IMG/VR virus record: IMGVR_UViG_3300008255_002410
Span: 1 to 61,734 of that record
Source: a virus
Lineage: Duplodnaviria; Caudoviricetes
Strand: one strand, 5' to 3'
Length of the DNA stretch: 61,734 nucleotides
How positions within the stretch are numbered: position 1 is the stretch's first letter; the number at the start of each line of letters is the position of its first letter. Positions 2,875 through 51,533 of this stretch are shown piece after piece. The translations under genes were made by a program, and so were the position numbers. The notes beneath the pieces are model-generated. The model was not told where the DNA came from. It was given only the letters and a program-made list of their open reading frames with translations, and searched no databases.

Positions 2875-2890
2875 TTGACGCCGGCGTCAA
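2875..2890. repeat. 16-bp palindrome TTGACGCCGGCGTCAA, copy 1
   Basis: Exact match; on the minus strand it is followed directly by the GGAGG SD and the ATG at 2865. Confidence 0.95.
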
Positions 2891-2892
2891 GT

Positions 2893-2919
2893 AAAGAGAA
2901 AGGCCCCCCGGAGGGGGCC
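2893..2919 (-). terminator. Intrinsic terminator downstream of the tmRNA
   Basis: Minus strand ggccccc-tccg-gggggcc followed by tttctcttt. Confidence 0.7.
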
Positions 2920-2932
2920 AGTGATAACTATA

Positions 2933-2971
2933 GGTACCACCAGTTTGATTCACTATCAAACTGGTGGTACC
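2933..2971. repeat. Perfect 17-bp inverted repeat with a 5-nt loop
   Basis: ggtaccaccagtttgat-tcact-atcaaactggtggtacc, 13 nt past the tmRNA CCA end. Confidence 0.85.
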
Positions 2972-2984
2972 GGATCAATTGCTT

Positions 2985-3367
2985 TGGTGGATCAGCCGGG
3001 AATCGAACCCGGGTCCTGAAAGTCGCCGGAGTTCCCGAGTTACGTGCGTCGTCAGCTCAAGGCCCGTTTTCCTGGTTTAGCTGACATCACCAGGCGGTTT
3101 TTCCTCTCACGGTATTTCGGCCCGTATGAGGGTAGGCCTATCCCCTTTTTTATTACACTCGGTCCCCCTTACCAGGGGAGAGCTCGGGGGCGAGTGTGGC
3201 TTAGTTGTAAGCCAGGTGACCAGGCTGGTTGCCGCTCAGGTGAGCAGCCGCCATCCAGGCCGGGGTGCTATTGCTGTTCGCAGTTAGCGCTTGCCCGTTT
3301 TTACGTGGCCAGGCGCCACGGCACGCAGAATACTCCTAACTTCTCCCAGTCGAGGCCTTTCTGACCC
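2985..3367 (-). ncRNA. ssrA: tmRNA (transfer-messenger RNA), 383 nt
   Basis: 5' GGGTCAG pairs with 3' CTGATCC-ACCA, including the G3:U70 alanine determinant. T-arm ccggg TTCGATT cccgg; TCGAC near the 5' end. TAACT precedes resume codon GCG (3281); tag ORF 3201-3281 = ANSNSTPAWMAAAHLSGNQPGHLAYN. Confidence 0.92.
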
Positions 3368-3436
3368 GTATGCTACTTGTACCATAAGTCAGTGCTATAC
3401 TGCAATTGGGTACGAAACGTACCGAAGGAGACTCCT

Positions 3437-3850
3437 ATGCCAGAAACACTTTCTGCTGCTGCCTCTGCTTTCACTTCCATGCCCTGGGTAGTCCAGCCAG
3501 ATGACACCCTCTACAGCCTCTTGATGAAGTTTGTTTTCGGCGTCCTGTCCACGTTCGCACTGCCCTGGATGCTGAGCTTCATTCACAGGGATAACTTTCG
3601 TAGAGCGCTGTTCAAGGGTGCTGAAGCCTTCATCCGTGCAGTTTCAGAAGATCTCCTTCAAGATTCAGATTCCCAAGCTGGGTTTGCTCGACTTCTCAAA
3701 CAGTTCAGAGAGAGTCATCCACTGGCTGCTGGTGCAGACAAACTCGTAGAGCTTGCACTGCGTGCCGCGCTGAATCGACTTACGCACAAAGTCCCGGCTA
3801 GTTCTCGAGAAGCTGGAGCAACCATTCGAGTTCGTATCCCTGGAAGATGA
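3437..3850 (+). CDS. Hypothetical membrane protein
   Basis: ATG at 3437 after a GAAGGAG SD; one hydrophobic segment LLMKFVFGVLSTFALPWML. Confidence 0.65.
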   Translation: MPETLSAAASAFTSMPWVVQPDDTLYSLLMKFVFGVLSTFALPWMLSFIHRDNFRRALFKGAEAFIRAVSEDLLQDSDSQAGFARLLKQFRESHPLAAGADKLVELALRAALNRLTHKVPASSREAGATIRVRIPGR

Positions 3851-3910
3851 TGAGGTTCTTTGGCCCATCCAGGGAGCGCTCCCTGGGTGTATCCAAGGGA
3901 GGGCTGACGC

Positions 3911-4090
3911 GTGAAGAGTGGTAAGAAGAAACAACCCGTGTTTTACGAGGTATCTTCGTTTGAGCATCGAGGGAAAGACCTGGACACACTTCTGGATGAG
4001 CTGTGTGACAAGGCCAGGAAGTACCAGGTAGATGTTCAGCGTACTGCATCGAAGTACCCCACTGAACCAGGTCACTTAAAGAAGTTATAG
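3911..4090 (+). CDS. Small hypothetical protein (59 aa)
   Basis: Below the ORF-track cutoff. GTG start after GGGAGG; MKSGKKKQPVFYEVSSFEHRGKDLDTLLDELCDK... Confidence 0.5.
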   Translation: MKSGKKKQPVFYEVSSFEHRGKDLDTLLDELCDKARKYQVDVQRTASKYPTEPGHLKKL

Positions 4091-4171
4091 GGTTACCTTG
4101 GTCAGGTGTTGGAGGGGGAGGTTTTTGTGCTTCTCGTGTTAAGCTAGATTCTTACTCGAGGGCGCGTGATG

Positions 4172-4756
4172 TTACTGCTGAAGATGGTCAGCTTGAAGTT
4201 TGCTATTGGTCACCAGGGGGTGCTTCCAGGTGTGTCCTGTGATTGCTCGCCAGGCGACTTGGTGGGCAACACCGAATTCCCGACTGAGAAGAAAACAGTT
4301 TTCTCCGGAGGCGTGACGTTGCCTCATTTCAAGGACAATAGCTTCAGTCAGTTTGGCTCTTCCGTGGGCAGAGCCACGCGGGCGTGTAGCCAGATGGACT
4401 CGTGCTGGGTTGAGATCTCCACGAAGAGATCGACCTTTCTTGATCATGTCTTGCATGTTGTCCCTTGGGGTACCAAGGAAAAGATGAGAAGGGCGAACAC
4501 ACGGCGGGTTGTCACATCGGTGGAGAACATAAAGTCCTGCAGGAATAGCACCATGTCGAATTTGCCAGGCAGCTCGATGTGCGTATCGAGTGCCACCTCC
4601 AGTGAACCTGACTCTTCCGTAACCGTTGGAAGACCTGCCTGCTGTCCAGACCCAACAGCCAGGACCTTTCTTGACGTGACTCCAGAAATCTACCCATCGC
4701 ATAATCGTCCTCATTTCATCCGTGTGTCTCACACATTTATCAACACAATAGCACAT
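4172..4756 (-). CDS. Free-standing HNH (homing) endonuclease
   Basis: CWVWT...GYG...AHRAAW...VLHRCDNPPCVRPSHLFLGT..DN..DM, with an HTH-like C-terminus. The true start may be 4714 or 4702. Confidence 0.9.
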   Translation of the reverse strand: MCYCVDKCVRHTDEMRTIMRWVDFWSHVKKGPGCWVWTAGRSSNGYGRVRFTGGGTRYAHRAAWQIRHGAIPAGLYVLHRCDNPPCVRPSHLFLGTPRDNMQDMIKKGRSLRGDLNPARVHLATRPRGSAHGRAKLTEAIVLEMRQRHASGENCFLLSREFGVAHQVAWRAITGHTWKHPLVTNSKLQADHLQQ

Positions 4757-4778
4757 AAACCTAGTAACAGTCTACCAT

Positions 4779-5270
4779 ATGTCTACCGAATCTGAATCTC
4801 GGGACACTCGCGATAAAGTCATAAAGGCTCTGACTCTTTTAGATCAGGCCAGTCTTGATCAAGTCAGAATTGACCGAAAGCTCGAGGTTCATGTTCGGGA
4901 GCATCTTGAAAAGATCCAAGGTCTTGAGCGAAGCATCCTCATGTTGGACGGGAAGGCTGACACTCTAATAGCTAAGGTAGATGGTATCGAAGCTTCCATC
5001 TATGAGACAGCCCAAGCTGCTGTACAGACTGCTGTATTGAGTGCCATCACAGATGTCAACATCAGCAAGCGCGTGACTGATGCGATTGAAGTTGAGAAGC
5101 GAAATGCTAGCTGGTCCTTCAGTAAGTGGATCCTAGCTGGTATTTTGGCTGCTCTTATAGCAATTGCGGATGTTGGGTTTCACCTGGTTGTTGGTTGGGT
5201 GGATGGAGCACTCAAAAATCCTACTGGACCTAGTTCTAGTTCAAGCTCAGCAACTCGGATTACAACATGA
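4779..5270 (+). CDS. Coiled-coil protein with a C-terminal transmembrane helix
   Basis: Heptad-rich N-terminal region, then WILAGILAALIAIADVGFHLVVGW. Confidence 0.7.
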   Translation: MSTESESRDTRDKVIKALTLLDQASLDQVRIDRKLEVHVREHLEKIQGLERSILMLDGKADTLIAKVDGIEASIYETAQAAVQTAVLSAITDVNISKRVTDAIEVEKRNASWSFSKWILAGILAALIAIADVGFHLVVGWVDGALKNPTGPSSSSSSATRITT

Positions 5271-5641
5271 GTTACAAGATTCTTGTCATTGATGATAACC
5301 CGGATTACTTGGATATTCTGGCACAGGTCCTCTTGAACGAAGGGTTTATTGTTGTTGTTGCCAAGTCTGGACAAGAGGGTCTGGAGCTTCTTGAAACATC
5401 TGGGCCATTCAGGGTTGTCATTTGTGACTGGATGATGCCTGGGATGGATGGTTGCGAAGTTTGTTCACTGGTACAGCAATCTAGCCAGCTTCCAGAGGAG
5501 TTCATTTTTCTCACCGCTTATAAAAAGGCTGATACCAATACAGAGTATCCAAACTGCCGAGTTCGGTGGTTTAGCAAACCCACTAGTATTCCAGAGATCA
5601 AGGCGTTTATGCAGACCTTGAAGGCTGGTGAAAAGGTTTGA
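5267..5641 (+). CDS. Single-domain response regulator (CheY-like receiver)
   Basis: ILVIDD, phosphoacceptor D in CDWMMPGMDG, FLTA, KP; all catalytic residues present. Confidence 0.92.
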   Translation: MSYKILVIDDNPDYLDILAQVLLNEGFIVVVAKSGQEGLELLETSGPFRVVICDWMMPGMDGCEVCSLVQQSSQLPEEFIFLTAYKKADTNTEYPNCRVRWFSKPTSIPEIKAFMQTLKAGEKV

Positions 5642-5825
5642 GAGGTGTCTTGTGCCCCAACTTGCAAAATCCGCTGTTGAAGATTTTACGCTCCAAGAAG
5701 TCTCCGCCTTTCTGGATGAGGCTCATCAGTACATCAGCATGGTTCAGCACAAGTTGGATGAAGCCAGATCCGTCCTGGGGGTAATGCAACAGCAGATCAT
5801 TGACACAGATAAGAAAAAGCCGTAA
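5628..5825 (+). CDS. Small hypothetical helical protein
   Basis: 65-aa ORF overlapping the stop region of the receiver gene. Confidence 0.5.
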   Translation: MKRFERCLVPQLAKSAVEDFTLQEVSAFLDEAHQYISMVQHKLDEARSVLGVMQQQIIDTDKKKP

Positions 5826-5969
5826 GCTACCTCTGCTTTTTGGAGAAGCTTGTTAGCTCGCGCCAGGAGCTTCCCTATAGAAGGTCTGGCAGACCTTCCC
5901 GGTTTAGACCCCGGAGCCGCCGAAGCCCCCCAAGATACCCGCTCGAGGGGGGGCTTCTCTTCCACCTTC

Positions 5970-5985
5970 TTGACGCCGGCGTCAA
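5970..5985. repeat. 16-bp palindrome TTGACGCCGGCGTCAA, copy 2
   Basis: Exact match; 5 nt upstream of the AAGGAGG SD (5991) for the GTG at 6003. Confidence 0.95.
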
Positions 5986-6002
5986 CGGGAAAGGAGGGCA
6001 GT

Positions 6003-6548
6003 GTGAACATCCATCTCATCGTGCAAGGTGTAGACAAGGCCAAGACCCCGGTCTCAAATTTGAACAAGTACCTCAGGGGTCGGATGTCTCAGGTCACTCG
6101 AGAGGCATACTTCGGGGAGAAGCCCAAGCAGGCGACAGTCCAGGCGCTTAAAGGTTCTGACGGAAATCTCTATGCCCGGGACAGCGGGGACCAGTTTTTG
6201 CAAGTGACTTCCAAGCGCTTTTCTTGCCCTCGAGCCAAGTGGCGAGTTGACGCCGTGGATGAAGCCATCGAAGACCTGGCCAAGAAGCTGCCTGCTGGGA
6301 AGAAGATCACGATCCTGCAAAGCATGGAGTTCTTTCTAGGAGAGGCCGAAAAGAACATCGTGTTCTACGTGAGCGGTAAGTTCTCTTGGGCCGGCTCTTA
6401 CTACAACGCAGGAAAGATTGGTGGCAAGCACCTTGTCCTTCCCGGGGATGCCCGGCAGTTGATACAAACAACCACTAGCGAAGAGACGTCGCAGGAGAGA
6501 CCTGTGCTTCAGAATCAGACGAAGTCTGGACTGATTCTTCCCTGGTAA
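6003..6548 (+). CDS. Hypothetical protein
   Basis: In frame with track ORF 5850..6548; GTG at 6003 preferred because of the AAGGAGG SD. Confidence 0.7.
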   Translation: MNIHLIVQGVDKAKTPVSNLNKYLRGRMSQVTREAYFGEKPKQATVQALKGSDGNLYARDSGDQFLQVTSKRFSCPRAKWRVDAVDEAIEDLAKKLPAGKKITILQSMEFFLGEAEKNIVFYVSGKFSWAGSYYNAGKIGGKHLVLPGDARQLIQTTTSEETSQERPVLQNQTKSGLILPW

Positions 6549-8090: not shown

Positions 8091-8117
8091 AATGTATACC
8101 AGAGAATTACAAAAAGT

Positions 8118-14000: not shown

Positions 14001-17000
14001 ACCAGACAGCGGGCTTTGGAAATCTGGTGTTGTCGTGGATCTGGCGCTTTGTCCAGGTCCCGCCATCCCACTCCCAGGTATCATTTCTGGCACCCGTAGG
14101 TAGCTGAGTAGGGGCAACACCACTACTAGTGCTGCCGCCGAAGAGGCGGACTACTCCCAAGTCTGGGTCAAAGGTTAGGCTGTGTCCACCTCTCCCAAGT
14201 GGGTAGTCTACGTCAGCAGTGCCCGGCACTTGGATTTGTGCCCATTCGGCGCCGTCGAACTCCCAGGTATCCGTAAGTACAGTCCCTGTTACAGCGTCCC
14301 AGCCACCAAATAGAACTGCAACGCCACGCACGCTGTCATAGGCTACTGCATGCCCCCAGCGTGGACTAGGAAAGTTACTAGACACCACATAGCTGACGGC
14401 AGTCCAGTCAGATCCGTCCCAAGTGTAGGCATCACTGAGGAGTTCTCCTTTCACATTCCCGTACCGGCCTGCGTGCAAAAACAGTCGGTTGCGTAGCGGG
14501 TCAGTAATCAGACTAGCGGACACGCGAGCCTTGAAGCCGGCGTCAGCTTCTGCGGTTGGTATTTTTCGAAGCCAGTTGGTGCCAGACCACTCCCAAGTCT
14601 CTTTGTTGTAAGTGCCCGCTGTATTCTGCCCACCAAAAAGTACGCATCTGTTAGTCTTTGGGTGGTACGCCCCAACAGCTTGTGTTCGAGCAGAAGGGAT
14701 GCTTTCTACTTCTGGGCTTTCAGACAGATAAGCCACACCGCTAAGGTCCGCAGACGCGGTGACCAAAGGAGAGGCCGAGGGTAGTGTTGCCAGGGTTCGT
14801 AGATCACCTGCAGCAGTCTTGTACTGCAAGTCACCACTGGCAATTTCAACAATAGCTCTGTTTTCTGGAGGCGCAGCTGCTTTTGGAAAGAGCAGGATTC
14901 CACTTTCTGGCAATCTGAGGATGCTACCCCCATAACCATCGTCTGAGTGGTCGTGTATCCCAGGGAAAGCCGTAGCAATTCGAGGGTCATTATCGCTAAC
15001 TGCTGCAGGCTTCTGTCCTGCAGGAAGGTTGATCCAGGTGGTCCCGTTGTACTCCCATACAGTTTGGTTGGTTCCTCCACCATAGAGCAGCAGGCTAGTT
15101 CTAGCACTGTTGTAAACAAGTCCAGCCAGGCTTCTTGCAGTAGGTACCCCTGCACTGAAAGTCTGCTGAGTCCAGGTGCTTGTCCCTGTATTCAGAGTCC
15201 AAGTATCATTGAGGTTTCCACTGTCATTACCCCCAAAGAGTACTACCCGACTTGTACTGGGGAGGTAGGCCATCGCCACAGACATCCTGGAAGTAGGACT
15301 CGAAGCTGGGTTGAGCTGAGTCCAGACCGTACCATTCCAGGTCCAGGTGTCCGAAAAGTGGGTTCCCGGGATGTCCAGGCGTTCTCCGCCGAAGAGAACT
15401 GTCTTTCCTTGGGAAACGTCAAAGGCAAGTCCCGGGTGGTTTCTTGGCGCTGGGGATGTCTCTGGAGTTACATCAGCCCAGGTCCAAACTTGGCCATCCC
15501 AGGAGAGTTCGTAGGTCTTGGAAGCCCCTTCTTCCACACCATAGACCACGACGACTTTTCGAACAGAATCGTAAATCGCTTTATGCCCAGCCAGTGTTGG
15601 TGAGTTGACGGTGGTGACCGGGTACCAGTTGGCACCGTCCCATTCCCAAGTTTCATTTGATGGTTCTGCATGCTCGTTTTGTAACCAGCCACCATGCATG
15701 AACACCCTGTTACGCGGTGGGAAGTACAAGAATGCATGGCCAGACCTGGCATCAGGGTATGCCTCTACAAATGCCCCCTGTGCATCCCGTGGTGAAGCAT
15801 CCATCCAGGAGAAGCCGTTCCACTCCCAAACTCGCTTGTCCACCAGGACTTGACTGGTGTTCTCTCCACCGAATGAAATGTTACGCAGCCGTCTTGGGTC
15901 ATAGGCTAAACCGCCCAAAGACACGGCAGTCGGGTTCTGAGTTACCCAGGGGGTAGCTGTCAGGTAAACAATTCCCTGTACGGTGGTTGATGCAGGGACT
16001 AGGGTAACGGCGGAAATAGCCGCAAGCGTGTTCTTGTCAGCTACCGACATCAAGCCAGGGATACTGGTCGGATTGGTCGCTCCATCACCAGTGGTATCAA
16101 CGTCCGTGGGGAGGAGACGCTTATCATCAGCTCGAACGGGGAGGGCGTTTGATGCTCCACTAGCTGCGTACTCAAGTGAGAGCTGGAGGTATTCACCAGC
16201 ACCTGAGTCCGCCTTGTCAGTGGCTAGCAAACCGTTGTTTTCTAGCACCCTGACTTCTATGATTCTGCTTGGGTTCGGGGGGTTTACTGGATTTGAGGTA
16301 GCATCCCCACCAATTGTGTACTCCCAGCGCTTTGTTACCGCGTTGAAAAGGATTGAGGGGAAATACGTGGAACCTGTGTTGACGAATAGCCCAGCGGAAC
16401 CTGAGGTCCCCCAAACCATCGTGGTGGAACCAGGGCCCAGGTAGAGATTCCCGGATTCATCAACACGCAACACGTCAACCGCAGGGAGCGCAGTAACAGG
16501 TAGAGGCTGTCTTCGAAGTCGCCAGGTGTCTGTTGGGTACCGTTCGTTTTCATTGTTGATGACCGTCAGGTCCCAGAATGGTATTGCTGTAGAGTTTCGA
16601 TTCCATTCAAGGGCTGTGACGTAGGCGCCGGCTTGCTGTGTGGTTCCAACCGTCAGGAACCCATCAGAGTCTCCGCTTCCACCGAAACCAGCCTGTCCGA
16701 AGAAGACACTAGGCCCTGCTTGTGGCATCAAGAAGGACGAGATGTCAGCGAAGCTGTTCTTTCCTGTGAAGCTGTTGTCACCCTCGAGCTTTGCGTTACC
16801 AGTAAGACGAGCGTCTGTGTTATCCACTGCAGCAGGGGTGGTCACCCCGTTGCTTGAGAAAACCACTCCAAGGGGGGTCCCAACCGTTCCATCCCCGGTA
16901 AGGGAGGCATCATGGTTTGGGGCTGTTCCCGTGATCTCAAGAACTGCTGGACTTGGGACCACGCTTGACTGCTGGTAGAGTTTGACACCAGGCCCTACAA

Positions 17001-19884: not shown

Positions 19885-19893
19885 TGTTTTTCC

Positions 19894-19909
19894 TTGACGC
19901 CGGCGTCAA
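19894..19909. repeat. 16-bp palindrome TTGACGCCGGCGTCAA, copy 3
   Basis: Exact match; contains the TGA stop of the 19906 gene and runs into the AAGGA SD of the giant fibre gene. Confidence 0.95.
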
Positions 19910-20532
19910 CGTGCTTCGACTGGGAGCACATCGTTGAGGGCTGCAAAGTTCTGAGAGGCCCCTTTTGTGCTGTTGATTGCCTTGTAGTAGGTTCTTCCCA
20001 GATAGGTGATTCTCCAGTAAGAGCCAAGTGGCCGGATTTTATCGTTTGGCACGAGTTCGAGAGTCCAACTTCCATCAGCACCTGTTTCTGTGGAAGCTGA
20101 AGATGCCAGGTGTTCCCCGTCTACAGTACTAGGCTTGATGCCTGGAGAGTAAAGAGTTGCCTTTACGGGTATTCCAGAAACACTTGGAAGTCCACTAGGT
20201 AAGCCAACGTACCCGGTGATGATGCTGGACAGGAGTCCTGCTTCTCTGGCGATCAGTGCTGGGGAGGGACCACTCTCAACTCGAGCAGCGTTATCAAAAA
20301 ACGTATACCAGTACTCATCCCCTATCGCTGCATCGCGAATCGCCCAATACTGAGTGCCTGGTGAGATGATGACGTCCAGGTCATCAGGGTCTGGCGGGAT
20401 GCGGACCGAAGTTCCACCACGCCGTCGATACAGAAATAGATGCGTGATGCGAGGATCAAGGTCTTGATATTGAAATTCAACAACGAAGTCCATGCTAGAA
20501 CCTTGGGGCTTGGCCAACAACGGGTAAGACAC
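19906..20532 (-). CDS. Virion/baseplate-like beta-rich protein
   Basis: D.RITHL..YR...SPGT..W.IRDA.IGDEY domain shared with the upstream gene; TGADG.W...LVPN carboxypeptidase-regulatory-like segment. Confidence 0.65.
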   Translation of the reverse strand: MSYPLLAKPQGSSMDFVVEFQYQDLDPRITHLFLYRRRGGTSVRIPPDPDDLDVIISPGTQYWAIRDAAIGDEYWYTFFDNAARVESGPSPALIAREAGLLSSIITGYVGLPSGLPSVSGIPVKATLYSPGIKPSTVDGEHLASSASTETGADGSWTLELVPNDKIRPLGSYWRITYLGRTYYKAINSTKGASQNFAALNDVLPVEAR

Positions 20533-21037
20533 GGACCAGGGCGGAAGCTGGACCCAGGATCTTTCCGGGGCTATGATATGGTCTCACAAAGTATTCATCT
20601 CCGATCTTGGCGTCTGAAATGGTAAAGCTCGTAGTTCCACTAGCAACCTGTCCAGCTTGCGTGAGGGTTCCCTCTCGGTTTCTGAAAACCTGTAAGTGGG
20701 TAACCCTGGAGTCTGTTGTGGTGGATAGCCCAAGCACGATTTCACCCGTGTAGTCTTTGGCATAATGGAGGCTTGTAGGGGCTACAAGCGAGGCTTCTGC
20801 CCCCTGGGAGTAACCAGACAGGAGTCCCAGGGTTAGTGTATCACCTACGGAGGAGTCGAACAGTATCCGGATGTGTGTTGAGTCGACATCTTCGTATTGC
20901 AGCGTTGAGTAGAGAAAGACGCCGTTCAGAAGTACCAGTAATTCGTGGGTACCTGTGACATGTTGAGGCACCAAGATCAGGAACCCAGAGGTGTGAATCC
21001 CTGGGTCCAGCGCCAGGCTAGTTTCGTTACGTAGCAT
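20495..21037 (-). CDS. Virion/baseplate-like protein
   Basis: LLVLLNGV..Y repeat plus a DSRVTHL..FR..SGTTSF.ISDAKIGDEY domain. Confidence 0.65.
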   Translation of the reverse strand: MLRNETSLALDPGIHTSGFLILVPQHVTGTHELLVLLNGVFLYSTLQYEDVDSTHIRILFDSSVGDTLTLGLLSGYSQGAEASLVAPTSLHYAKDYTGEIVLGLSTTTDSRVTHLQVFRNREGTLTQAGQVASGTTSFTISDAKIGDEYFVRPYHSPGKILGPASALVRVLPVVGQAPRF

Positions 21038-25745: not shown

Positions 25746-26197
25746 TTTCCACCAAATACCCCTCGAATCCGATCAAGTAGGCTTCGTTCTTTTGGTTGGA
25801 CGAGTCTTTCCAGGGCCTCTATGTCACCTGCGAAAGCACGACTCACAGACGTTTCTAGCACTTCCAGGTGGCTTAGTTTTTCTCTGATGACAATCTGAGT
25901 TTGCATGTTGAATCCATGTGAAAGAGTTTTTACTGCTAGAAACAGCTCCTTGTGAATCCTGGTCATCTCAGAAAGGTGTTTATACTGTATGGCGGTTACC
26001 CTCTCGAGCCTGGAGAGTCGATCATCAAGTTGCTTTGCCCCTATACCAGAATTAGACACCCCAGCACTCCAGAGTAGGGCATCCTCAATGTGCATAGTGG
26101 TTGTCGTGGGCATGTGCTCTCCTCTTAGCTCTAGTGTTAGACCAATTGCTTTTAGCAGATCCAGTTTACCAGGAAAAAGCTTCTTGATCCCACTCAA
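25742..26197 (-). CDS. Hypothetical coiled-coil protein
   Basis: 151-aa helical ORF with ATGA overlap downstream; start uncertain. Confidence 0.55.
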   Translation of the reverse strand: MSGIKKLFPGKLDLLKAIGLTLELRGEHMPTTTTMHIEDALLWSAGVSNSGIGAKQLDDRLSRLERVTAIQYKHLSEMTRIHKELFLAVKTLSHGFNMQTQIVIREKLSHLEVLETSVSRAFAGDIEALERLVQPKERSLLDRIRGVFGGK

Positions 26198-29385: not shown

Positions 29386-29419
29386 AAGACGCCCCGGACA
29401 TTATGCCACGGGGCGTCTT
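29386..29419 (-). terminator. Stem-loop between the repeat protein and GT2
   Basis: aagacgccccg / cggggcgtctt 11-bp inverted repeat ending 3 nt before the GT2 ATG. Confidence 0.45.
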
Positions 29420-30093: not shown

Positions 30094-30230
30094 GGAGATT
30101 ACCTCTCTTTGATATCCGAGTTAGCTGTAGGCTGCTTTCCAGTGTCCCAGCTAGAGCCAACTAGAGTTTACCATAAAACTAGAAATCAAAGAGGCCTACT
30201 GGTACCCTTGTAAAAAAGGAGGCTCCCTGT

Positions 30231-30881
30231 ATGAAAAAGTCACAATTCCCGTTCTACACTCCACCTGAGGAAGAGCTGTGCAAGAAGCTTGGCGCTATCA
30301 GTGTTACCCTTCGCCAGGTAGTTTTGTGTCGCGATGTTCCGCATCTCAACATGCGGGTCCGGGTTCTCTGGCTTCTCATGAATCCCGACATCGGGGGGGT
30401 ATGGCGGCGACATCCTAACCCGCCTACGTCCTGGCTGCTTGCGATTAGCGGCAAAACCTATACTTTGATTCAGGAAGGCGTCAGCCTGGAAGCTGGGAAC
30501 TCCGCCACAGATCCAACCACAGCAGCTGCTCTTTTGATTGGCCAACAGACGCTTCATCTTGGGTACTTGGCCGAATCAGACCCAGACGCCTTGCCTGATG
30601 CCCTTCGAGAGGCCGCCCCCATGAATGAGGTTGAAGAGATCCTTGACGCCGGCGTCAAGGAAGAAGAGGAGGATGATCAAGTGGTTGCATCTACAGCTGG
30701 CGAAGATGGAGAGCCTGTTAATGAAGAGGCATTCTCTGAAGAGCCCGGACAGATCGACGGGCAAGAGATTGTGATCGAGTCAGCGGATGACTTCGTGTTC
30801 GAAAACGAAGAGGAAGCGGTCCCTGAGCTTCCCCCTCCGCCGCCCAAGAGGGGCGGACGGAGAGGAAAGAACAAGGCCTAG
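30231..30881 (+). CDS. Hypothetical protein with acidic and Pro/basic tail
   Basis: AAGGAGG SD; Glu/Asp-rich C-terminal half ending PPPPPKRGGRRGKNKA. Confidence 0.75.
   Translation: MKKSQFPFYTPPEEELCKKLGAISVTLRQVVLCRDVPHLNMRVRVLWLLMNPDIGGVWRRHPNPPTSWLLAISGKTYTLIQEGVSLEAGNSATDPTTAAALLIGQQTLHLGYLAESDPDALPDALREAAPMNEVEEILDAGVKEEEEDDQVVASTAGEDGEPVNEEAFSEEPGQIDGQEIVIESADDFVFENEEEAVPELPPPPPKRGGRRGKNKA
30640..30661. repeat. Palindrome copy 4, extended to 22 bp (TCCTTGACGCCGGCGTCAAGGA)
   Basis: Exact core at 30643-30658, inside a CDS (encodes LDAGVK). Confidence 0.95.
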
Positions 30882-39176: not shown

Positions 39177-39221
39177 TTGATCTCCAACCCTGGCCGGCGT
39201 CGGCCAGGGTGGTTGTTCAAG

Positions 39222-40576: not shown

Positions 40577-41967
40577 TCAAGTACCGCACCTTCAGGGGGA
40601 CTCTCAGAGTTTTCCTTGACGCCGGCGTCAACTCCCTTAACCTCTGGAATGTCCCCGTCATCCTCACACTCGATAGCCTCGAGACCGAGGTCAGAGCCAG
40701 TCATTGTTTCTCGGGTCATCCTCAAAACGTCTGCCCACTGCCTGGCGTTGCTCCGCTGTTGGAAGTACCAGGCCAAGTCAAAGAGATTCTTGTCCTCAAC
40801 TATCGTTCCGTCAGGCAAAGTAATTCTTGGGTTCTTGAATCCAGGCTCGAATCCTGTACCTTCCTTCTTCCCATCACACTTGACTCGGCCCTGTTCGGCC
40901 AAGTAAGTCAGTACGCTTTCATAGTCGTTGAACCCAGTATGGAATCTCCCTACGTCTTGGTAGTAGTACGTGTAGGGGAAATTCGAGTAGGCACCACCGA
41001 AGCGACTCTTGGCCAGGATCAGTCGACCTCTAATACCTACCGGAATTTTGCGTTGTCCTTGCTTGAGGTGAATCTTCCCTTTCCGCATGAACTGAAGCTG
41101 AAAGCTTTCGGCGTAGTCCTTAGCCTTGCCTGATGTTCCAACAACCCTGTCCTCCTCAGCCATGTACTTGGCCTTCATCATGTTGTGCTCAATCTTAGCT
41201 ACCATCTGATTGATCAGGATTACTGTGCCATGACCCTTGATGAGTGCCCCACCGAACTTCCGGATACAGGAGGCTACGACCTTAGACCTGGCGTAATTGT
41301 CCTGCTTGGCATAGTCCGGTGAGAGGTCAGCCCGGATTGGCGTTGCCGCAATTGAATCCCAAGTAAGAAGAAAGGGGACGTGCGGAAGTCCAGCCATGTA
41401 AATCAGGGCACGATCTGCCTGATCGAATACTCCTTCAATACAGGGGTTTCGAATTCCGATCCAGCCTCGGTCTACAACAACATGAAGCTTCTTGGCCATT
41501 CCTGTGTGCATGGCCTTCTCTTGGTCAAAGTGGGCAACCTTTCCACCCATTTCTTGTATAGCTGCTTCCAGGCACAGGAGAAAGGCGGTTTTGCCATCAC
41601 TAGAACCACCATTGGCCTCTACAACCCTTCCTTGGGGGATACCCCCGTTTTTGATGAATACCTTCCCAGAAGCTTCGTCAAAGACGACTTCTCCTCCGGA
41701 GGCCAGATTCACCAGGGATAACGGAGTAGGGATGAACCCGGGAACGTCCATCTCATAAACACCAAGGACTGTTGCTTCTTTGGGGCTTGTTAAGTTCGGT
41801 ACTTTCCAGCCCTTTGGGGGAGCTGAAGGAGCAGCCCCTGTTGCTCCATAGTAGACCTGTGATGTTGTATCAGCCTTTTTCAGAATGTCCGTCAGTTCAT
41901 AAAAGAGAAACTCATCCAGTTCGTCCCGGGAATACGTCACCACAGCTTTCTTTTGCTTCCTTGCCAT
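40573..41967 (-). CDS. recA: RecA/UvsX recombinase
   Basis: GGIPQGRVVE..G.SSDGKT, FDQE.A, WDSIAA, LINQ, G.SG.A..Y, KSR. Confidence 0.85.
   Translation of the reverse strand: MARKQKKAVVTYSRDELDEFLFYELTDILKKADTTSQVYYGATGAAPSAPPKGWKVPNLTSPKEATVLGVYEMDVPGFIPTPLSLVNLASGGEVVFDEASGKVFIKNGGIPQGRVVEANGGSSDGKTAFLLCLEAAIQEMGGKVAHFDQEKAMHTGMAKKLHVVVDRGWIGIRNPCIEGVFDQADRALIYMAGLPHVPFLLTWDSIAATPIRADLSPDYAKQDNYARSKVVASCIRKFGGALIKGHGTVILINQMVAKIEHNMMKAKYMAEEDRVVGTSGKAKDYAESFQLQFMRKGKIHLKQGQRKIPVGIRGRLILAKSRFGGAYSNFPYTYYYQDVGRFHTGFNDYESVLTYLAEQGRVKCDGKKEGTGFEPGFKNPRITLPDGTIVEDKNLFDLAWYFQQRSNARQWADVLRMTRETMTGSDLGLEAIECEDDGDIPEVKGVDAGVKENSESPPEGAVLE
40616..40631. repeat. 16-bp palindrome TTGACGCCGGCGTCAA, copy 5
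   Basis: Exact match in the recA 3' end (VDAGVK), 39 nt upstream of the flap nuclease ATG. Confidence 0.95.
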
Positions 41968-41984
41968 TTCGCTCCTTGGGGGGC

Positions 41985-42008
41985 GGGGGCCAGGCGAACC
42001 TGGCCCCC
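41985..42008 (-). promoter_or_regulatory. 10-bp GC stem with UUCG loop between SSB and recA
   Basis: Minus strand gggggccagg-ttcg-cctggccccc; no U-tract. Confidence 0.5.
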
Positions 42009-42015
42009 AATGAGG

Positions 42016-46300: not shown

Positions 46301-47183
46301 CTGTACCCCGAATTTGCATCGGATTTCTTTGGAGTACAGACTCAAAGTCTGAAATGAGTCTTTGGGCTGGGCAAAGTGAGAGGAGTCTAATTGCTTCTTG
46401 TGGTCCCCCCTTAACTCCAACTCTTCCACAAGTGTTGTCTTTGTACCTAGCCTCTTCTCGAACTCTGAGTTCGAAGCCACGCTCCTTGAGTAGAGTCTCT
46501 GCTCGATCAAGTAGGGGACCTAGATTCTGGGAAAAACCGATGTGGCCTCTTGAGTGGATGTTGTCTTTCTTTGACCCAAGAATATGACCCTCCTCGTCAA
46601 GAAAACCAGCAAGCCAACCGGCGTCAAAAGAGGGTTCAATATGTGTAGGAGGGACTAGGTAGATTAGAGAGGATGCTCTCTTTGTGGTGTTCCTTGACTT
46701 GTTCTTTCGCCACAGTGACTGCAACTGATCAAGACGAAGCCACTCGGCCTTTCTTGTTCCTTTGGTAAGAACTCGGTGTTCCGGGGTTCCAGTAAGGTGT
46801 CTCTGCTCTGTGGCTACAGTCCAGCATTGAGCTGCTCGGTGGTGAACTTCTAGTATTTCAGAAATCCTCCACCTTCTGGGTTGGAACTTGCTTGCTCCTG
46901 AAGTACTGGGTCGGCAATGTTCGTCTACTGCAATGAGACGATCTCCGACTTTTGCTTCTCCAAGAGGTTTCCACTTCAAGTCTGCGTAGAGAATTAGAGT
47001 ACTCTCCTCTAGGCAGAACGGTTTTCCCTGGGCATCCTCACGATCTCCAGGAGCTTCTCCGACAACCAAAAGATCCGGTTGGTCCAGAGGACCCCGGCCT
47101 TTCATCTTGGGGGAGTGACAACCAGTATCCCGAAGGGGACACTCGGGACACTTCGCCCAGCTCGCGAATGGGCGAACAATCAT
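43305..47183 (-). CDS. polA: Family A DNA polymerase with N-terminal family-4 UDG-like domain, 3'-5' exonuclease and an intein
   Basis: CxxC, GEAPG..ED, CRPP.N, HPA (UDG); DFEATG, HN..YE, YNGVDA (exonuclease); TGRLAS.DPNL.NIP, ADYAGIELR, R..AK...F..IYG, LVHD (polymerase); GGAGG SD. Confidence 0.93.
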   Translation of the reverse strand: MIVRPFASWAKCPECPLRDTGCHSPKMKGRGPLDQPDLLVVGEAPGDREDAQGKPFCLEESTLILYADLKWKPLGEAKVGDRLIAVDEHCRPSTSGASKFQPRRWRISEILEVHHRAAQCWTVATEQRHLTGTPEHRVLTKGTRKAEWLRLDQLQSLWRKNKSRNTTKRASSLIYLVPPTHIEPSFDAGWLAGFLDEEGHILGSKKDNIHSRGHIGFSQNLGPLLDRAETLLKERGFELRVREEARYKDNTCGRVGVKGGPQEAIRLLSLCPAQRLISDFESVLQRNPMQIRGTVRAKAKVQSIYPAGPKLVVDVKTTTGTFLANGFVVHNCGDSGDALENALEKVGFDRSRVRYTYAVRCRPPNNNTPDEAVIKACSPALAAEIKTARPKVVLLAGATALRSIGKGSSVANNRGKWFERRGVYYVPTWHPAKLLREKNPQSLGEFADDLNTVLEISRNGAPKVVLPDNVHICVTIDEVRQEMALMLDATPKKVAFDFEATGLRPEKPGFQVLSCGFSWGEGYGPPVDDLPYRTFVVPLFHQQSPLTVSEREEALEYIREFARAEHLTKVVHNVYYEYQVLWSHLGVELAGRVLDTLHLDAQRDETVRHNLELLSWKTPYRGWKELSETYLRGLKKKDRRYGDIPLIVYQQELDVEKTREVNVAYSQDLSEYLAPLQTKALESGRRYLRKVFKATQDFNQATEAAQAKIKELLVKAVRASQWTETTKTGEKTVHKKPIKPAPITRDTCEVVGGLAMYNGVDAHATRWLEEKFETPAVLKRGTMQVYEETLEPAFSVLSKMMARGVQVDRLFLTYAQGHFQQELDRLRADILKKPELNDWPEFNPDSGAQVAELLYGRLGYRLSGKEYEETGGFRLTEGGQKKITSGLLPLDKLSWKDYSTDAVALENLAHKHKGLPRLLLKWSKVGTAKGTFVDSFLDSEDGHIQWDGKVHTSFTAAGPRTGRLASRDPNLMNIPSRPYFFELTKSEFTSLEQELGEEQLVCLGFTRKDDDRNHGEPMEIFHEPGCDYVLLKDGTLRKGITLKKMFISSWEGGYIVDADYAGIELRVLASITKCRQLILDLITGKGDVHRMTASTIFGIPPEKVTYEMRQRAKTALFSIIYGKTVHGLALALEISDREAAKIVMGIFARYPEVKYYIEACHEFIRKNGYVQNVDGRIRKFPGVWSNKQSLINAAFREGFNHEVQGPASDITLKAIVRLWNFLEKHGFKARPILLVHDDIGTECPPKERDQVYQIQKTIMEDAPTWMQVPTKVDIRACKTWGDPKDMNYYGTK
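46191..47015 (-). mobile_element. Intein (275 aa) with a LAGLIDADG motif in the UDG domain
   Basis: PF|CLEESTLI ... TPEHRV ... WLAGFLDEEG ... TGTFLANGFVVHN|CG. Confidence 0.92.
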
Positions 47184-47194
47184 TTTCATCCTCC

Positions 47195-47229
47195 AGGTGG
47201 GGCGGTGGCTAAGAAGCCCCGCCCCACCT
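47195..47229 (-). promoter_or_regulatory. GC stem-loop abutting the polA SD
   Basis: aggtggggcgg...ccgccccacct inverted repeat. Confidence 0.45.
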
Positions 47230-47236
47230 TAGGTTA

Positions 47237-48415: not shown

Positions 48416-49182
48416 TGGGATGTGTTCTCCTTTCCGATTTGGTTTGGGTGGGTAGTGGGATAGTAATCCGTATCCGGACAGGCTGCAATAGGTTTGTTAG
48501 TACTTGTCGATTTTTTCTTGCTAACTCTGCTTACGACCGGGAGATGAAGGGACACCCGTACCAGGATGTTATGGTCCTTCTTCAGCTTCAGGAACAGTGC
48601 AAGTTCTCGAACGAAATCTTCCTTAGGCTTTCCTAGAACTTGACTTCTTCTTCGATCCAAAGCAATTGTAAGGTAGAGCTGATCCGGGGAAGGGGTAGCC
48701 CAACTGACCAGAGTAAAGGGGAGGCGCTCTCGAAGTTCCCCCACAACCCCCGCCCAAGTAAACTCCTCATGCCGAGCCTCCAGAAAAGCCTCAAATGGTA
48801 AATTCGAGTTTAAGTCATGAAAGGGGGCGTCAGTTAGGAGGTATTGCGAGGCCGTGTTCCACAGTTGTGCTTGAGCCTCATCAAGTGAAATGGACTCTTC
48901 CTGAACACGGTTGAGCAAGTCTCTGAACTGGGTAGCCACTAACCAAAGCCGCTCTGATGCCGTCACGGGGCGTTTGCCCAAGATCAGCCCGCGAAGAGCC
49001 ATGATGCCGTGGCCCCGGCAGTACATAAGGGGTGTGGGGTTCCGTTCTGGGCAGGCATCTACCAGACAAGGAAAGTCCCCCCGCTTTCGTAGGAGGACTT
49101 TTGCCTGTTTCTTGGCAGCCCTTGCAGTTCGGTGTAGCCCGGTTCCGGTTGCGGGTGCTTCAGTTACTGGGATCTTCGGCAC
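48328..49182 (-). CDS. Hypothetical protein
   Basis: Long ORF with a C...C.........C..H Zn-like motif; start uncertain (GTG at 49182 chosen). Confidence 0.55.
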   Translation of the reverse strand: MPKIPVTEAPATGTGLHRTARAAKKQAKVLLRKRGDFPCLVDACPERNPTPLMYCRGHGIMALRGLILGKRPVTASERLWLVATQFRDLLNRVQEESISLDEAQAQLWNTASQYLLTDAPFHDLNSNLPFEAFLEARHEEFTWAGVVGELRERLPFTLVSWATPSPDQLYLTIALDRRRSQVLGKPKEDFVRELALFLKLKKDHNILVRVSLHLPVVSRVSKKKSTSTNKPIAACPDTDYYPTTHPNQIGKENTSQWQQSPLPPPQQSPEKPCLPPRRPSRPRR

Positions 49183-49558
49183 GAGCTGGGGCAATCCCTT
49201 CCGAAGTTTGCACGGTGTGCCTGACCTCGGGGCTCGCGTCCTGGGCGTAGGCGTGTTGTAGAACGGTATTGCCCTGTTGCACCCCATTCCGCAGGACGGC
49301 CACATGATTCGTCAGGAGCTGAGCCGCAGCCATCAGCTTCGGTGCCGCGACCTCTTCACCAGAAAGAATCCTGGAATTCAGCTCGCCAATCAGATCGGTG
49401 AAGATATCAGCGTAGTTGCTGAGTCGAATGAGAGCCTTGGCCATCTCACTGGTGTCCCATTTGCGGGGCTCTTCTGCGAGGTGCTGCTGCACCTGGTTGA
49501 AAAGCGCTGTTGCCCGGCGGAATACCACCGAGGACTCGAGAAAATTCATCGTCTGCAC
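49160..49558 (-). CDS. Hypothetical protein
   Basis: Helical 132-aa ORF after an AAGGAG SD. Confidence 0.6.
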   Translation of the reverse strand: MQTMNFLESSVVFRRATALFNQVQQHLAEEPRKWDTSEMAKALIRLSNYADIFTDLIGELNSRILSGEEVAAPKLMAAAQLLTNHVAVLRNGVQQGNTVLQHAYAQDASPEVRHTVQTSEGIAPARAEDPSN

Positions 49559-49810
49559 CTATTTCTCCTTTGCCCAAGAACCAATGTCTACAGGTTCCAG
49601 GTCTGTTCCATTGTGAACGTACTGATATTGTTCAGTTTTCAAGTTCTCATAAATCTCAGCCTGGTTACCGTACACAATGAGGTATCCAAGTAGAGCGAAT
49701 TCAGCACGAACAGGCGGAGGTCTTGGGCTCTTGATCTGGTGAGCCTCAAGATGCCGCTGTAAATCACACTTGAGGATGGAGACCTCCGCTTTGTCTAGTT
49801 TCCGTTTCAT
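49559..49810 (-). CDS. Hypothetical protein
   Basis: 83 aa; ATGA overlap upstream and abuts the next gene. Confidence 0.6.
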   Translation of the reverse strand: MKRKLDKAEVSILKCDLQRHLEAHQIKSPRPPPVRAEFALLGYLIVYGNQAEIYENLKTEQYQYVHNGTDLEPVDIGSWAKEK

Positions 49811-50025
49811 AACCTAGTCTTGTCCAGATCGATGTCGGTTCCGAGTACTATCAAATCCGGAACTTGTCCGGGTCCACAGCACCGTTCACACCGTTTGACC
49901 TTTCCAGCGGCCATGTACTGATTCGTGCCCACCGTACATGGGAGTGGTGGAGAGATTCTTACGATGTCTCTTCCACATTCCTGGCAGGTGATAAGAGTAT
50001 CGGGGTTTGAGCAGCTACTCCGCAC
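49807..50025 (-). CDS. Small Zn-ribbon protein
   Basis: AAGGAGGAG SD before GTG at 50025; CQECG...CERC. Confidence 0.55.
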   Translation of the reverse strand: MRSSCSNPDTLITCQECGRDIVRISPPLPCTVGTNQYMAAGKVKRCERCCGPGQVPDLIVLGTDIDLDKTRL

Positions 50026-50180
50026 AGCTCCTCCTTTTGATTCCAGAAGCCACACTCTTGCCGGTCGCAAGCGTCCTCGGCAGAGATGGCGCCCTCCATT
50101 AAAAATGTCCTGACTTCCTCTCGGCCCAGAATGCGGGCCAGATCTGTGAGCCCCTTCTTGATAGGGCAATAGGTAATCAT
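49959..50180 (-). CDS. Small Cys-containing protein
   Basis: ATGA overlap; YCP...C....C.FW......C pattern. Confidence 0.55.
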   Translation of the reverse strand: MITYCPIKKGLTDLARILGREEVRTFLMEGAISAEDACDRQECGFWNQKEELCGVAAQTPILLSPARNVEETS

Positions 50181-50575
50181 TCGAACCCGTCGAGTTTCTT
50201 GGTCTTCGTCAGAGTGTTTGGTGCTGGCATGTCGGGAGGCATCTGACCAGTGTAACCTTGGGAGTTGAAGTTGGTCTGTGGTCCCTCCCATTGGTCTTTG
50301 TACATCGACGGACGGTGGGGCTTTTCTTTGCTCCGAAGCCTTCGTTGGTCTCTACCTGCCGGGTGTAGTCCCTCAGTAGGGCCCATTGAGGTTAGGATGG
50401 ACTTCCCATCGGAACATTGCTCCTTCCACCTAATGATGGCTGTCGCTGACCAGGTTCGCCGGATACAGACTGCTCCGCAGTAGGGACAGTTGTACGGCTT
50501 ATCCCGATCTGCAATCAGCCGGATCTCATCTGTGAGGGATTTGCACTGACTACAATCGAATTCGAATAGGGGCAT
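50177..50575 (-). CDS. FmdB-family zinc-ribbon protein
   Basis: MPLFEFDCSQC...CPYCG......S signature. Confidence 0.8.
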   Translation of the reverse strand: MPLFEFDCSQCKSLTDEIRLIADRDKPYNCPYCGAVCIRRTWSATAIIRWKEQCSDGKSILTSMGPTEGLHPAGRDQRRLRSKEKPHRPSMYKDQWEGPQTNFNSQGYTGQMPPDMPAPNTLTKTKKLDGFE

Positions 50576-50623
50576 TAACCTAGGATACCAGGGGGGTGTA
50601 ACTGAAGACAAGAATTTCTTAGG

Positions 50624-50652
50624 AAAAACTGGAATCCCAGAAGGGACTCCAG
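50624..50652 (-). terminator. Intrinsic terminator
   Basis: Minus strand ctggagtccc-ttct-gggattccag-ttttt. Confidence 0.7.
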
Positions 50653-50670
50653 CTCCAGACTACCAGGTAG

Positions 50671-51303
50671 TTAGATCTGGATTTCCTGAATCGCTGATAC
50701 AAAGCGACTCTGGTTCTTCTGCATGAGGGCGAGCCCCTCTTCACCGCAGAATAGCCAGGTTGCTTGTCGGCCACCGTTCTTGTTTGGATTCCAGCAGGGG
50801 AGGATCACCCCCTGCAGGTTGCTATCATTCCGGGGGGTCGGGTGGGTCTTGGCGTAGCCATGGACCACCGTTTCCACGAACCTACCCTGTCGATCCCGGA
50901 CGACCTCCACTACGGGAATCTCATCCCCGAAATAGGTCTCCAGTCCTATTGGCAGGGTGTATCCACCGGCCCGCCGCCCGTGGTTACTGCTGTCCACTTG
51001 GTGGATCCTGCACAGAAGTGCCCGCTCCTTTCCGATGTTGAGGATCGGGGGCAGCTTAAGATCCTCATCGTCCTCTCCTACGAACTTGGGGGTGTGTTTC
51101 CGTCCCACAACCGCCTCCACCACGGGGGCGGTATCAAACACCGACCGGGACACAGCCCGGTAAATCGGTGTTTGGAGCTCTGCTCCGCTGAAAAACTTCT
51201 CAGCAAGGAAGAGCCGCTCATCCGATGTATCTCCCCTGAGCTGTCCAGTGACCAGAAACGCTCTACCACCAGAGAACAGCACCGCCTGTCCAAGGAACCC
51301 CAT
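50671..51303 (-). CDS. Hypothetical protein
   Basis: Strong AAGGAGG SD; 210 aa. Confidence 0.75.
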   Translation of the reverse strand: MGFLGQAVLFSGGRAFLVTGQLRGDTSDERLFLAEKFFSGAELQTPIYRAVSRSVFDTAPVVEAVVGRKHTPKFVGEDDEDLKLPPILNIGKERALLCRIHQVDSSNHGRRAGGYTLPIGLETYFGDEIPVVEVVRDRQGRFVETVVHGYAKTHPTPRNDSNLQGVILPCWNPNKNGGRQATWLFCGEEGLALMQKNQSRFVSAIQEIQI

Positions 51304-51517
51304 GATTCCCTCCTTTCCTGATTGCAGCCCTCAGTCGTTGTCAGCCCCTTGTCGACTGATGGTTGCAATCCTTTCCAGTACAAAGATGCCCACTCCCAAC
51401 GTGAAGTAGAGTCCCATGGACCCTCCTCTTGAGAACGGGTGGCCGACATCCTTCTTGTACCTCGAAAAATGCTCCCTAACAGTGTATCCTGGAGAACACG
51501 CTCCTACTCAACTTGAT

Positions 51518-51533
51518 TTGACGCCGGCGTCAA
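51518..51533. repeat. 16-bp palindrome TTGACGCCGGCGTCAA, copy 6
   Basis: Exact match overlapping the AAGGA SD of the RNAP ATG at 51542. Confidence 0.95.

Follow-up and report, generated by a model that had tools for sequence, protein, structure and literature searches.

A perfect 16-bp palindrome, TTGACGCCGGCGTCAA, occurs in six identical copies in IMG/VR virus record IMGVR_UViG_3300008255_002410, the 61,734-nt stretch of phage DNA analyzed here as a whole (the window), and five of the six copies end within 40 nt of a start codon. Taken together with the GGA(A) found on its gene-proximal side, we read this palindrome as a second, phage-specific class of promoter recognized at the level of DNA, a reading to which we give a probability of about 0.45. 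The window is the complete record and is estimated to hold 34% of the genome, which would put the genome at about 180 kb. It encodes a fused beta-beta' multisubunit RNA polymerase (RNAP) whose gene is preceded by one of the copies. The copies and the elements that adjoin them are the following.

2875-2890, minus strand: copy 1, followed by GGAGGTCTC and then by the ATG at 2865 of gene 1162-2865.
2902-2919, minus strand: intrinsic terminator with seven G-C pairs and the tail TTTCTCTTTA; it ends 11 nt before copy 1 and closes the transfer-messenger RNA (tmRNA) gene 2985-3367.
5922-5957, plus strand: hairpin whose 10-bp stem (GAAGCCCCCC / GGGGGGCTTC) closes a 16-nt loop; the pyrimidine tract TCTTCCACCTTC, 12 nt long, comes next and ends at copy 2.
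5970-5985, plus strand: copy 2, followed by CGGGAAAGGAGGGCAGT and then by the GTG at 6003 of gene 6003-6548.
14531-14546, minus strand: degenerate copy with two mismatches, within the giant Kelch-repeat gene.
19894-19909, minus strand: copy 3, followed by GGAAAAACA and then by the ATG at 19884 of the gene for a 2941-aa Kelch-repeat fibre.
30640-30661, no strand assigned: copy 4, a 22-bp perfect palindrome, TCCTTGACGCCGGCGTCAAGGA, around the 16-mer at 30643, with GGA on both sides.
40616-40631, minus strand: copy 5, followed by GGAAAAC; the flap-nuclease ATG is at 40576, 39 nt from the end of the copy.
51518-51533, plus strand: copy 6, followed by GGAACCAA and then by the ATG at 51542 of the fused beta-beta' RNAP gene.
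51542-58936, plus strand: gene of the fused beta-beta' multisubunit RNAP, 2464 aa, with Rpb2 and Rpb1 domains (Pfam).

The six exact copies, at 2875, 5970, 19894, 30643, 40616 and 51518, had been reported in an earlier note made from the sequence alone, and all of them were recovered here; 100 dinucleotide-preserving shuffles of the window contained none. When up to three mismatches were allowed we obtained seven matches, against a shuffle mean of 0.12. The seventh is the two-mismatch copy at 14531, also described in that note, which is probably either a chance match or a decayed copy. The palindrome is by far the most repeated long word of the window, and no other perfect palindrome of 12 bp or more recurs in it. 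From the first copy to the last, the series extends over 49 kb (2875-51533). The last four copies (19894-51533) are separated by 10749, 9973 and 10902 bp, in line with the 10.7, 10.0 and 10.9 kb given earlier, and the preceding intervals are 3.1 and 13.9 kb. When six points were placed at random, three consecutive gaps as even as those of the last four copies appeared in 0.5% of the simulated sets, a post hoc comparison with a P of about 0.005.

The earlier note had also raised the possibility that the copies were assembly or adapter artefacts. They are not, because contigs assembled from other sequencing runs hold copies 1-3 without internal differences: copy 1 is covered by a contig of run X6 (2600-3093) with no differences, copy 2 by a contig of the same run (5579-6348) and copy 3 by a contig of run X4 (19516-20556), and none of the sequence differences listed for other runs' contigs falls inside a covered copy. 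Four DNA runs contain strains that share about 99% identity; 34 places vary in 20 kb, but not one of them is among 64 bases belonging to the copies. This strain variation is uninformative on the copies, because only about 0.1 variable place would be expected in 64 bases. A contig of run X10 matches the window at 5966-6000 only, which corresponds to copy 2 and its first 15 downstream bases, and both of its flanks differ. This piece probably represents another copy, either from the unseen remainder of the genome or from a relative, and its different context suggests that more copies exist outside the window.

The distances from the end of the motif to the next start codon are 9, 17, 9, 549, 39 and 8 nt for copies 1-6, respectively. 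Given the 47 called starts of the window, the binomial probability of four of six copies ending no more than 20 nt from a start is 9.6e-7, and that of five of six ending no more than 40 nt from one is 1.6e-7. The starts were taken from a simple gene caller that rewards words resembling a Shine-Dalgarno sequence (SD), GGA included, and could favour starts at the copies. Three of them, at 2865, 19884 and 40576, coincide with the first start codon in the open reading frame (ORF), and residue 1 of the RNAP, as read from the start at 51542, aligns to residue 1 of the RNAP of Salmonella phage Arash; for the start at 6003 the SD is the sole basis. Four copies had been placed directly at SDs, those of the giant fibre gene, the RNAP gene, the gene starting at 6003 and a gene labeled GHKL (1162-2865). 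The positions are right in all four cases, but the label did not stand: gene 1162-2865 matched no Pfam and no NCBIfam family, and its only matches were PHROGs of unknown function. Further claims of the earlier note agree with our own measurements, namely the 39 nt between copy 5 and the flap-nuclease start at 40576, the extension of five copies (1, 3, 4, 5 and 6) by GGA, the 22-bp palindrome at copy 4, which starts at 30640, and the two copies inside coding sequences (4 and 5), both of which encode DAGVK.

The flank gives the palindrome a direction. GGA(A) is located on the gene side of copies 1, 3, 5 and 6 and, with copy 4 set aside, it always faces the gene; the longer form GGAA is present in four of the seven aligned GGA-type flanks (a count that takes in both flanks of copy 4 and the minus-side flank of copy 2). 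An SD-like AAGGA, 4-6 nt before the start, arises at copies 1, 3 and 6 where the final AA of the palindrome meets the GGA, whereas the GGA(A) of copy 5 cannot be an SD because the start is 39 nt away. No conserved sequence was found upstream of the aligned copies.

Copies 1, 2 and 6 are located at the heads of transcription units, copies 1 and 2 after a terminator or hairpin, and the side of the GGA(A) shows a fixed orientation at copies 1, 3, 5 and 6; copy 4 is the exception. The gap between hairpin and palindrome is 11 nt at copy 1 and 12 nt at copy 2 (the hairpin at 5922-5957 was not listed by the terminator scan because its loop is longer than 8 nt). Since the palindrome is the only conserved element between the hairpin and the SD at these two places, no other promoter is visible for the genes that follow. 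Copy 6 is located in the divergent region 51304-51541 and heads the RNAP operon. At copy 3, the TGA within the TTGACG of the motif is the stop codon of the upstream gene 19906-20493, and the fibre gene starting at 19884 comes first in a series of genes in the same direction (fibre, tail-fibre-like and amidase), which we read as one operon. Copy 5 lies within the final 20 codons of the gene for the UvsX-like recombinase, where they encode an acidic C-terminal tail (..VDAGVKENSES..). Copy 4 is also intragenic: it lies in the plus-strand ORF 30231-30881, which has an acidic tail (..ILDAGVKEEEE..), and the next minus-strand start is 549 nt away.

Several more familiar kinds of element were tried and rejected. 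None of the 21 sigma-70-like promoter sites listed in 60 kb falls at any copy, and host-type promoters are not enriched in this DNA, because the summed shuffle means amount to 31.8 such sites. Each arm of the palindrome does begin with TTGAC, which had been likened to a -35 box, but no sigma-70-type promoter is formed at any copy, and inspection of the copies by eye revealed no consistent -10 after either TTGACG arm. The motif is not an intrinsic terminator either: the 10 nt after each copy hold at most four T, in both directions, and the terminator scans list none of the copies. A half-site system was discarded on the grounds that the eight extra GTCAAGGA words of the window are not near starts. 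Counts bearing on restriction-site avoidance showed nothing notable, GCCGGC being present 20 times against 11.6 expected.

The palindrome is not a common host or phage motif, as elsewhere it was seen as single copies only, among the matches listed. In IMG/VR the exact 16-mer was found in 22 other contigs, once in each and in unrelated coding context. In the genomes of 185,579 species it is present in at least 120 stretches, with one site each across all 120 that were checked, and the 12 flanks viewed resemble coding sequence. A relaxed form, TTGACG-N4-CGTCAAGGA, gave at least 116 stretches; among the 80 listed, 79 have a single site and the other one is a two-strand overlap at one place.

To judge from its domain content and from identities of 31-40%, the RNAP is similar to that of the so-called mReC phages (PMC7481178). 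Its ORF carries a LAGLIDADG intein at about residues 1037-1376, between the beta and beta' parts. The nearest RNAPs are encoded at eight loci in uncultured contigs (35-40% identity), and those of cultured phages with genomes of 181-188 kb, namely Salmonella phage Arash and Vibrio phages D69, D148 and D181, are about 31% identical to it. We compared the window with the genomes of four relatives, the uncultured contigs G001, G002 and G004 and phage Arash (OQ632216.1). The RNAP fusions of G001 and G002 are intein-less (2054 and 2114 aa), and in Arash the RNAP is contained in at least two genes. What the window has in common with these four is confined to the RNAP, the SNF2 helicase encoded after it and a portion of PolA, with no helicase match in G001 and no PolA match in G002. 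A protein search with the recombinase gave no match in IMG/VR and three loci, of 23-27% identity, in the metagenome collection.

No repeated palindrome was found in G001, G002, G004 or Arash, and TTGACGCCGGCGTCAA is in none of them. The earlier note had proposed relatives as a check, and the motif is absent from the genomes of all four, which are distant ones (31-40% RNAP identity). Two of them do have a palindrome in single copy 14-23 nt before the start of the RNAP gene: GAGAGTCTTGGGACTCTC in G001 and, in G002, GAGGCGGCCCGCCTC followed by AAGGA, the latter in a divergent intergenic region. As a separate observation, Arash contains five intergenic elements, found every 34-40 kb, each made of two inverted arms (..CAAACGTTGTAACC..ACCCCACCTCAAGAC..) that are 142 bp apart.

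Arash (OQ632216.1), arm pairs: 26630/26772, 66377/66519, 100133/100275, 138480/138622 and 173254/173396.

The relatives share a different, asymmetric signal. In G002, the word GGCATAA is present in 12 of 59 upstream regions against an expectation of 0.26; 12 of its 14 copies are intergenic, all 12 at 9-77 nt before a start, and their alignment reads G(C/A)AAA-N15-GGCATAAGAAyAnTGAAGG. The same type of motif is found at four sites in G001 and one in G004. In Arash, for which an RpoS-like sigma factor (gp196) is annotated, TGGTATAAG has 18 copies; every one lies between genes, all are on the same strand, and most precede a start by 16-40 nt. Judging from these sequences, TGG(C/T)ATAAG looks like a lineage-wide, asymmetric promoter of the extended -10 type. 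Weak counterparts are present in the window.

3379-3388, plus strand: TACCATAAG, 48 nt before 3437.
26164-26176, plus strand: GTTTACCAGGAAA, about 45 nt before 26219.
29394-29402, minus strand: TGGCATAAT, before 29382.
30166-30178, plus strand: TTTACCATAAA / GTTTACCATAAA, 53 nt before 30231.

These CATAAR-type sites of the window, too few for statistics, may represent the first promoter class of the phage. The two signals exclude each other: units with a CATAAR-type motif are without the palindrome, and units headed by the palindrome are without a CATAAR-type motif. Two different signals at equivalent unit heads are therefore the pattern expected of two promoter classes.

In the reading we favour, the 16-bp palindrome with its gene-proximal GGA(A) would be a transcription signal read in duplex DNA and would mark the 5′ boundary of a subset of the phage's transcription units. 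Its reader would be the transcription machinery of the phage itself: the fused beta-beta' RNAP, probably together with a specificity factor binding the dyad in dimeric form. Initiation would take place at or just past the GGA(A) and would produce leaders of about 8-40 nt. We prefer a promoter because, at copies 1 and 2, another one could not be accommodated in the succession of hairpin, motif, SD and start, and because of the gene-facing flank, the exact identity of the copies and the mutual exclusion with the CATAAR class. By analogy, six identical 16-bp copies would be typical of the promoters of phage-encoded polymerases, and not of degenerate operators; near-identical promoter copies are an established feature of T7-type phage polymerases. 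Recognition as DNA rather than as RNA is suggested by the central CCGG, which is self-complementary, a property with a chance of 1 in 16 for a hairpin loop; other hairpins of this genome have loops of UUCG or ACG type, which are not self-complementary. A more specific version of this reading is doubtful in our view. It holds that the core promoter is itself symmetric and GC-rich, that the beta-beta' RNAP reads it by way of a dimeric non-sigma factor, that direction comes from the GGA(A) alone, that the mRNAs are near-leaderless, and that copy 6, and perhaps copy 4, may fire both ways.

Promoters of known phage polymerases provide partial parallels. T7-type promoters, like the motif, are near-identical copies of about 17-23 bp placed directly before genes, some of them in the 3′ end of the upstream gene or after terminators, and have a purine-rich start region; they differ in being asymmetric and in serving a single-subunit enzyme, whereas here we find a perfect GC-rich palindrome and a beta-beta' fusion. 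The T7 promoter extends from -17 to +6, according to the available portion of PMC4496689. Promoters of the multisubunit RNAPs of jumbo phages such as phiKZ and AR9 are, like the motif, phage-specific and can be found bioinformatically upstream of operons (PMC7598289, in the part available).

A number of points weigh against a promoter. The phage was found in groundwater and aquifer DNA sequenced in 13 studies (0.90-0.99 of the sampled words in runs X1-X3) and in no RNA run, so that no transcripts speak for a promoter. No specificity factor or sigma was found in the window, where the sigma factor of Arash has no match (best E 4.4); such a factor, or a regulator, may be encoded in the other two thirds of the genome. 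A promoter does not need a perfect palindrome, which is the classic signature of the operator of a dimeric regulator. In the accessible sections of PMC7598289, the known promoters of phage multisubunit RNAPs consist of short sequences rich in A and T: about 10 nt centred near -10, a TATG located at the start site, or AACA-N6-TA/G. None is a GC-rich 16-bp dyad comparable to the 16-mer described here. Copy 4 lies inside a gene, has symmetric flanks and is 549 nt away from the next start. The genes that the copies would serve are functionally mixed (fibre and lysis, flap nuclease, RNAP) and make up no obvious temporal class. Leaders of 8-9 nt would be unusually short. An RNAP gene that relies on its own enzyme must have a packaged polymerase or a second promoter, neither of which is in evidence here. 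Finally, as far as their sequences go, the unique palindromes before the RNAP genes of G001 and G002 could equally mean a structural (RNA) or an autoregulatory role there.

The palindrome could instead be the operator of a global regulator, a phage homodimer that binds the duplex and represses or gates transcription at gene starts, or blocks it within operons, the distal copy 4 acting at a distance. This idea was among those proposed in the earlier note, as a phage-wide regulon; it is viable in view of the perfect dyad, and we rank it below the promoter, as somewhat unlikely. The dyad, perfect over 16 bp including the central CCGG and over 22 bp at copy 4, fits a dimeric binder, and so do the mixture of gene-proximal and intragenic sites found every 3-14 kb, the copy before the RNAP gene, which would be a natural feedback target, and the unique palindromes that G001 and G002 have at their own RNAP genes. 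An operator would still require a promoter, yet at copies 1 and 2 there are only 11-12 nt to the preceding terminator or hairpin, with nothing conserved upstream; in addition, the one-sided GGA(A) facing the gene would be unexpected of a symmetric binder, and operator sets usually vary, whereas the six copies are identical. No helix-turn-helix, ParB or other DNA-binding domain was detected among the 36 ORF products scanned (Pfam, E <= 0.01), which leave about 66% of the genome unseen. The OB sites of plasmid RK2, of which there are 12, are likewise identical short palindromes spread over a replicon of about 60 kb, some at promoters and some distant from them. They are unlike the motif in that their sequence is unrelated, a gene-facing GGA(A) and a start distance of 8-9 nt are not features of KorB, and no ParB-family gene was found in the window. 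KorB itself is a dimeric global regulator of the ParB family. From its palindromic OB sites, it silences promoters up to 1.5 kb away (PMC11790492, as far as its available text goes). The stoperators of Cluster A mycobacteriophages are another precedent, being short repressor sites present in many copies across phage genomes and acting on transcription within operons; they are asymmetric and bound by a monomeric repressor (PMC9283540, in the sections at hand), whereas the motif is a perfect dyad and nothing temperate was seen in the window. The third possibility raised earlier, that the palindrome acts in RNA, as a hairpin with a 6-bp stem and a CCGG loop at the 5′ edge of the ribosome-binding site that stabilizes the 5′ end or is recognized for processing or by a translational regulator, has a weaker case, because of copies 4 and 5 and of the palindromic loop, and we consider it unlikely. 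An even palindrome of 16 bp folds with a stem of 6-7 bp and the 4-nt loop CCGG, and this hairpin forms in five of the seven folded contexts of exact copies; the SD-like AAGGA at copies 1, 3 and 6 is in keeping with it, and so are the palindromes before the RNAP genes of G001 and G002. GC-rich hairpins often abut an SD in this genome: 8 of 47 genes have a perfect stem of 7 bp or more whose end is no more than 30 nt from the start, against 2.5% of random places. The context folding is unremarkable (z-scores of -1.5 to +1.1 in six of seven contexts), and the hairpin is absent from the minimum-energy fold at copy 5. Copies 5 (39 nt) and 4 (549 nt) are too far from a start for a translation signal, and a processing cut at copy 5 would sever the mRNA of the recombinase 15 codons ahead of the stop. 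An RNA structure needs neither identical sequence nor a self-complementary loop, and there are no G-U or compensatory variants that would show selection on pairing, because all the copies are identical. The nearest precedent linked to gene starts is that of the start-associated sequences (SAS) and extended SAS (ESAS) of Cluster K mycobacteriophages, repeats located a few bases before starts that overlap the SD and sometimes hold the upstream stop codon, the ESAS adding inverted repeats. The SAS are non-palindromic 13-mers, 3-7 bp from the start and in tens of varying copies, and their function is still not known (PMC3203893, for the portion consulted). The motif is not a member of this class: its six copies are identical and palindromic, four of them lie 8-17 nt from a start and the other two at 39 and 549 nt, and only the edge formed by AA and GGA is SD-like.

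The two remaining possibilities are far less probable. A site for genome organization (segregation, condensation or loop anchoring), comparable to parS and read by a system of the ParB or SMC type, would account for the size, the symmetry and the number of identical copies, as well as for the even spacing of the last four. It would predict neither the tight link to start codons nor the gene-facing GGA(A), and the first intervals are uneven; parS sites usually cluster near parAB, and no ParB domain was found among the 36 ORF products scanned against Pfam, from a record that covers about 34% of the genome. With little else in its support, we hold it to be very improbable. The promoter for the phage RNAP that the earlier note had suggested by analogy to phage N4 is preserved in our preferred reading as far as the promoter goes, but the analogy fails on the enzyme class, the loop and the 49-kb spread of the copies, and that the palindrome should be extruded under supercoiling and read as single-stranded DNA is to us scarcely credible. 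There are likenesses: N4 promoters contain inverted repeats as part of a conserved stretch, about 18 nt long (-17 to +1), that ends at the start site (PMC4496689, in the part available), the conserved span of 16-19 nt described here also ends by a purine start, and as single-stranded DNA the hairpin has an energy of -4.5 to -9.1 kcal/mol. The virion polymerase of N4 belongs to the T7-like single-subunit enzymes, whereas the window encodes a single RNAP, of the multisubunit kind. The N4 hairpin has a stem of 5-7 bp and an unusually stable 3-nt loop with specific purines, and its promoters are confined to the early region at one end of the genome (same source, within its available text), whereas here the loop would be the 4-nt CCGG and the copies extend over 2875-51533.

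Regarding the rest of the window, its genes include those of a PolA-UDG fusion, an SNF2 helicase, the UvsX-like recombinase, the flap nuclease, a primase, and DnaB and other helicases; on the structural side, the gene of the 2941-aa Kelch-repeat protein adjoins the tail-fibre-like and amidase genes. The phage tmRNA gene (2985-3367, minus strand) matches Rfam RF00023 with 118.6 bits, an identification shared by ARAGORN. In three runs, contigs from other organisms match the 3′ end of the tmRNA (2983-3016), and this accounts for the loose contig ends at that place. The product of 573-1052 (minus strand) matches the N-terminal domain of dATP/dGTP diphosphohydrolase (PF18909, E 1.5e-22), a family linked to phages replacing adenine in their DNA. 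A free-standing HNH endonuclease gene (4172-4702, minus strand) and a stand-alone gene for a CheY-like receiver domain (5267-5641, plus strand; PF00072, E 7.5e-18) are located between copies 1 and 2. Unique GC-rich hairpins without T-runs are found at the SDs of three minus-strand genes, at 39177-39221 (gene 39176), 41968-42015 (recombinase) and 47106-47236 (PolA). One of the SD-abutting hairpins has a UUCG loop (GGGGGCCAGG-TTCG-CCTGGCCCCC), and one has GACGCCGGC in common with the palindrome. Single-sequence folds of the 181-aa product encoded after copy 2 and of the 228-aa product encoded after the RNAP had a mean predicted local distance difference test score of 31.8 and 42.3, respectively, and were unusable; a search of the protein atlas with the candidate factors gave no usable lead.

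Finally, short repeats at the starts of phage genes are a known kind of element. What is new here is a symmetric GC-rich 16-mer with a directional flank, abutting ribosome-binding sites, in a lineage with a fused multisubunit RNAP. The word promoter has no occurrence in the paper that defined the lineage (PMC7481178), and our literature search on the transcription signals of the lineage found no account of them, supplements not being covered, which is not proof of absence. Phages of this lineage carry a deeply diverged multisubunit RNAP, and an exact repeat located at gene starts provides a template for in vitro transcription and for fishing out factors. The TGG(C/T)ATAAG motif, common to distant members of the lineage that include a cultured Salmonella phage, can be tested at the bench and is perhaps of wider use. 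Should the palindrome be an operator, it would define a phage-wide regulon that includes the polymerase gene. Should it be a promoter, its symmetry would be new for bacterial-type RNAPs, and, if the more specific version outlined above is true, it would represent a way of recognizing promoters that has not been described for any bacterial-type multisubunit RNAP.

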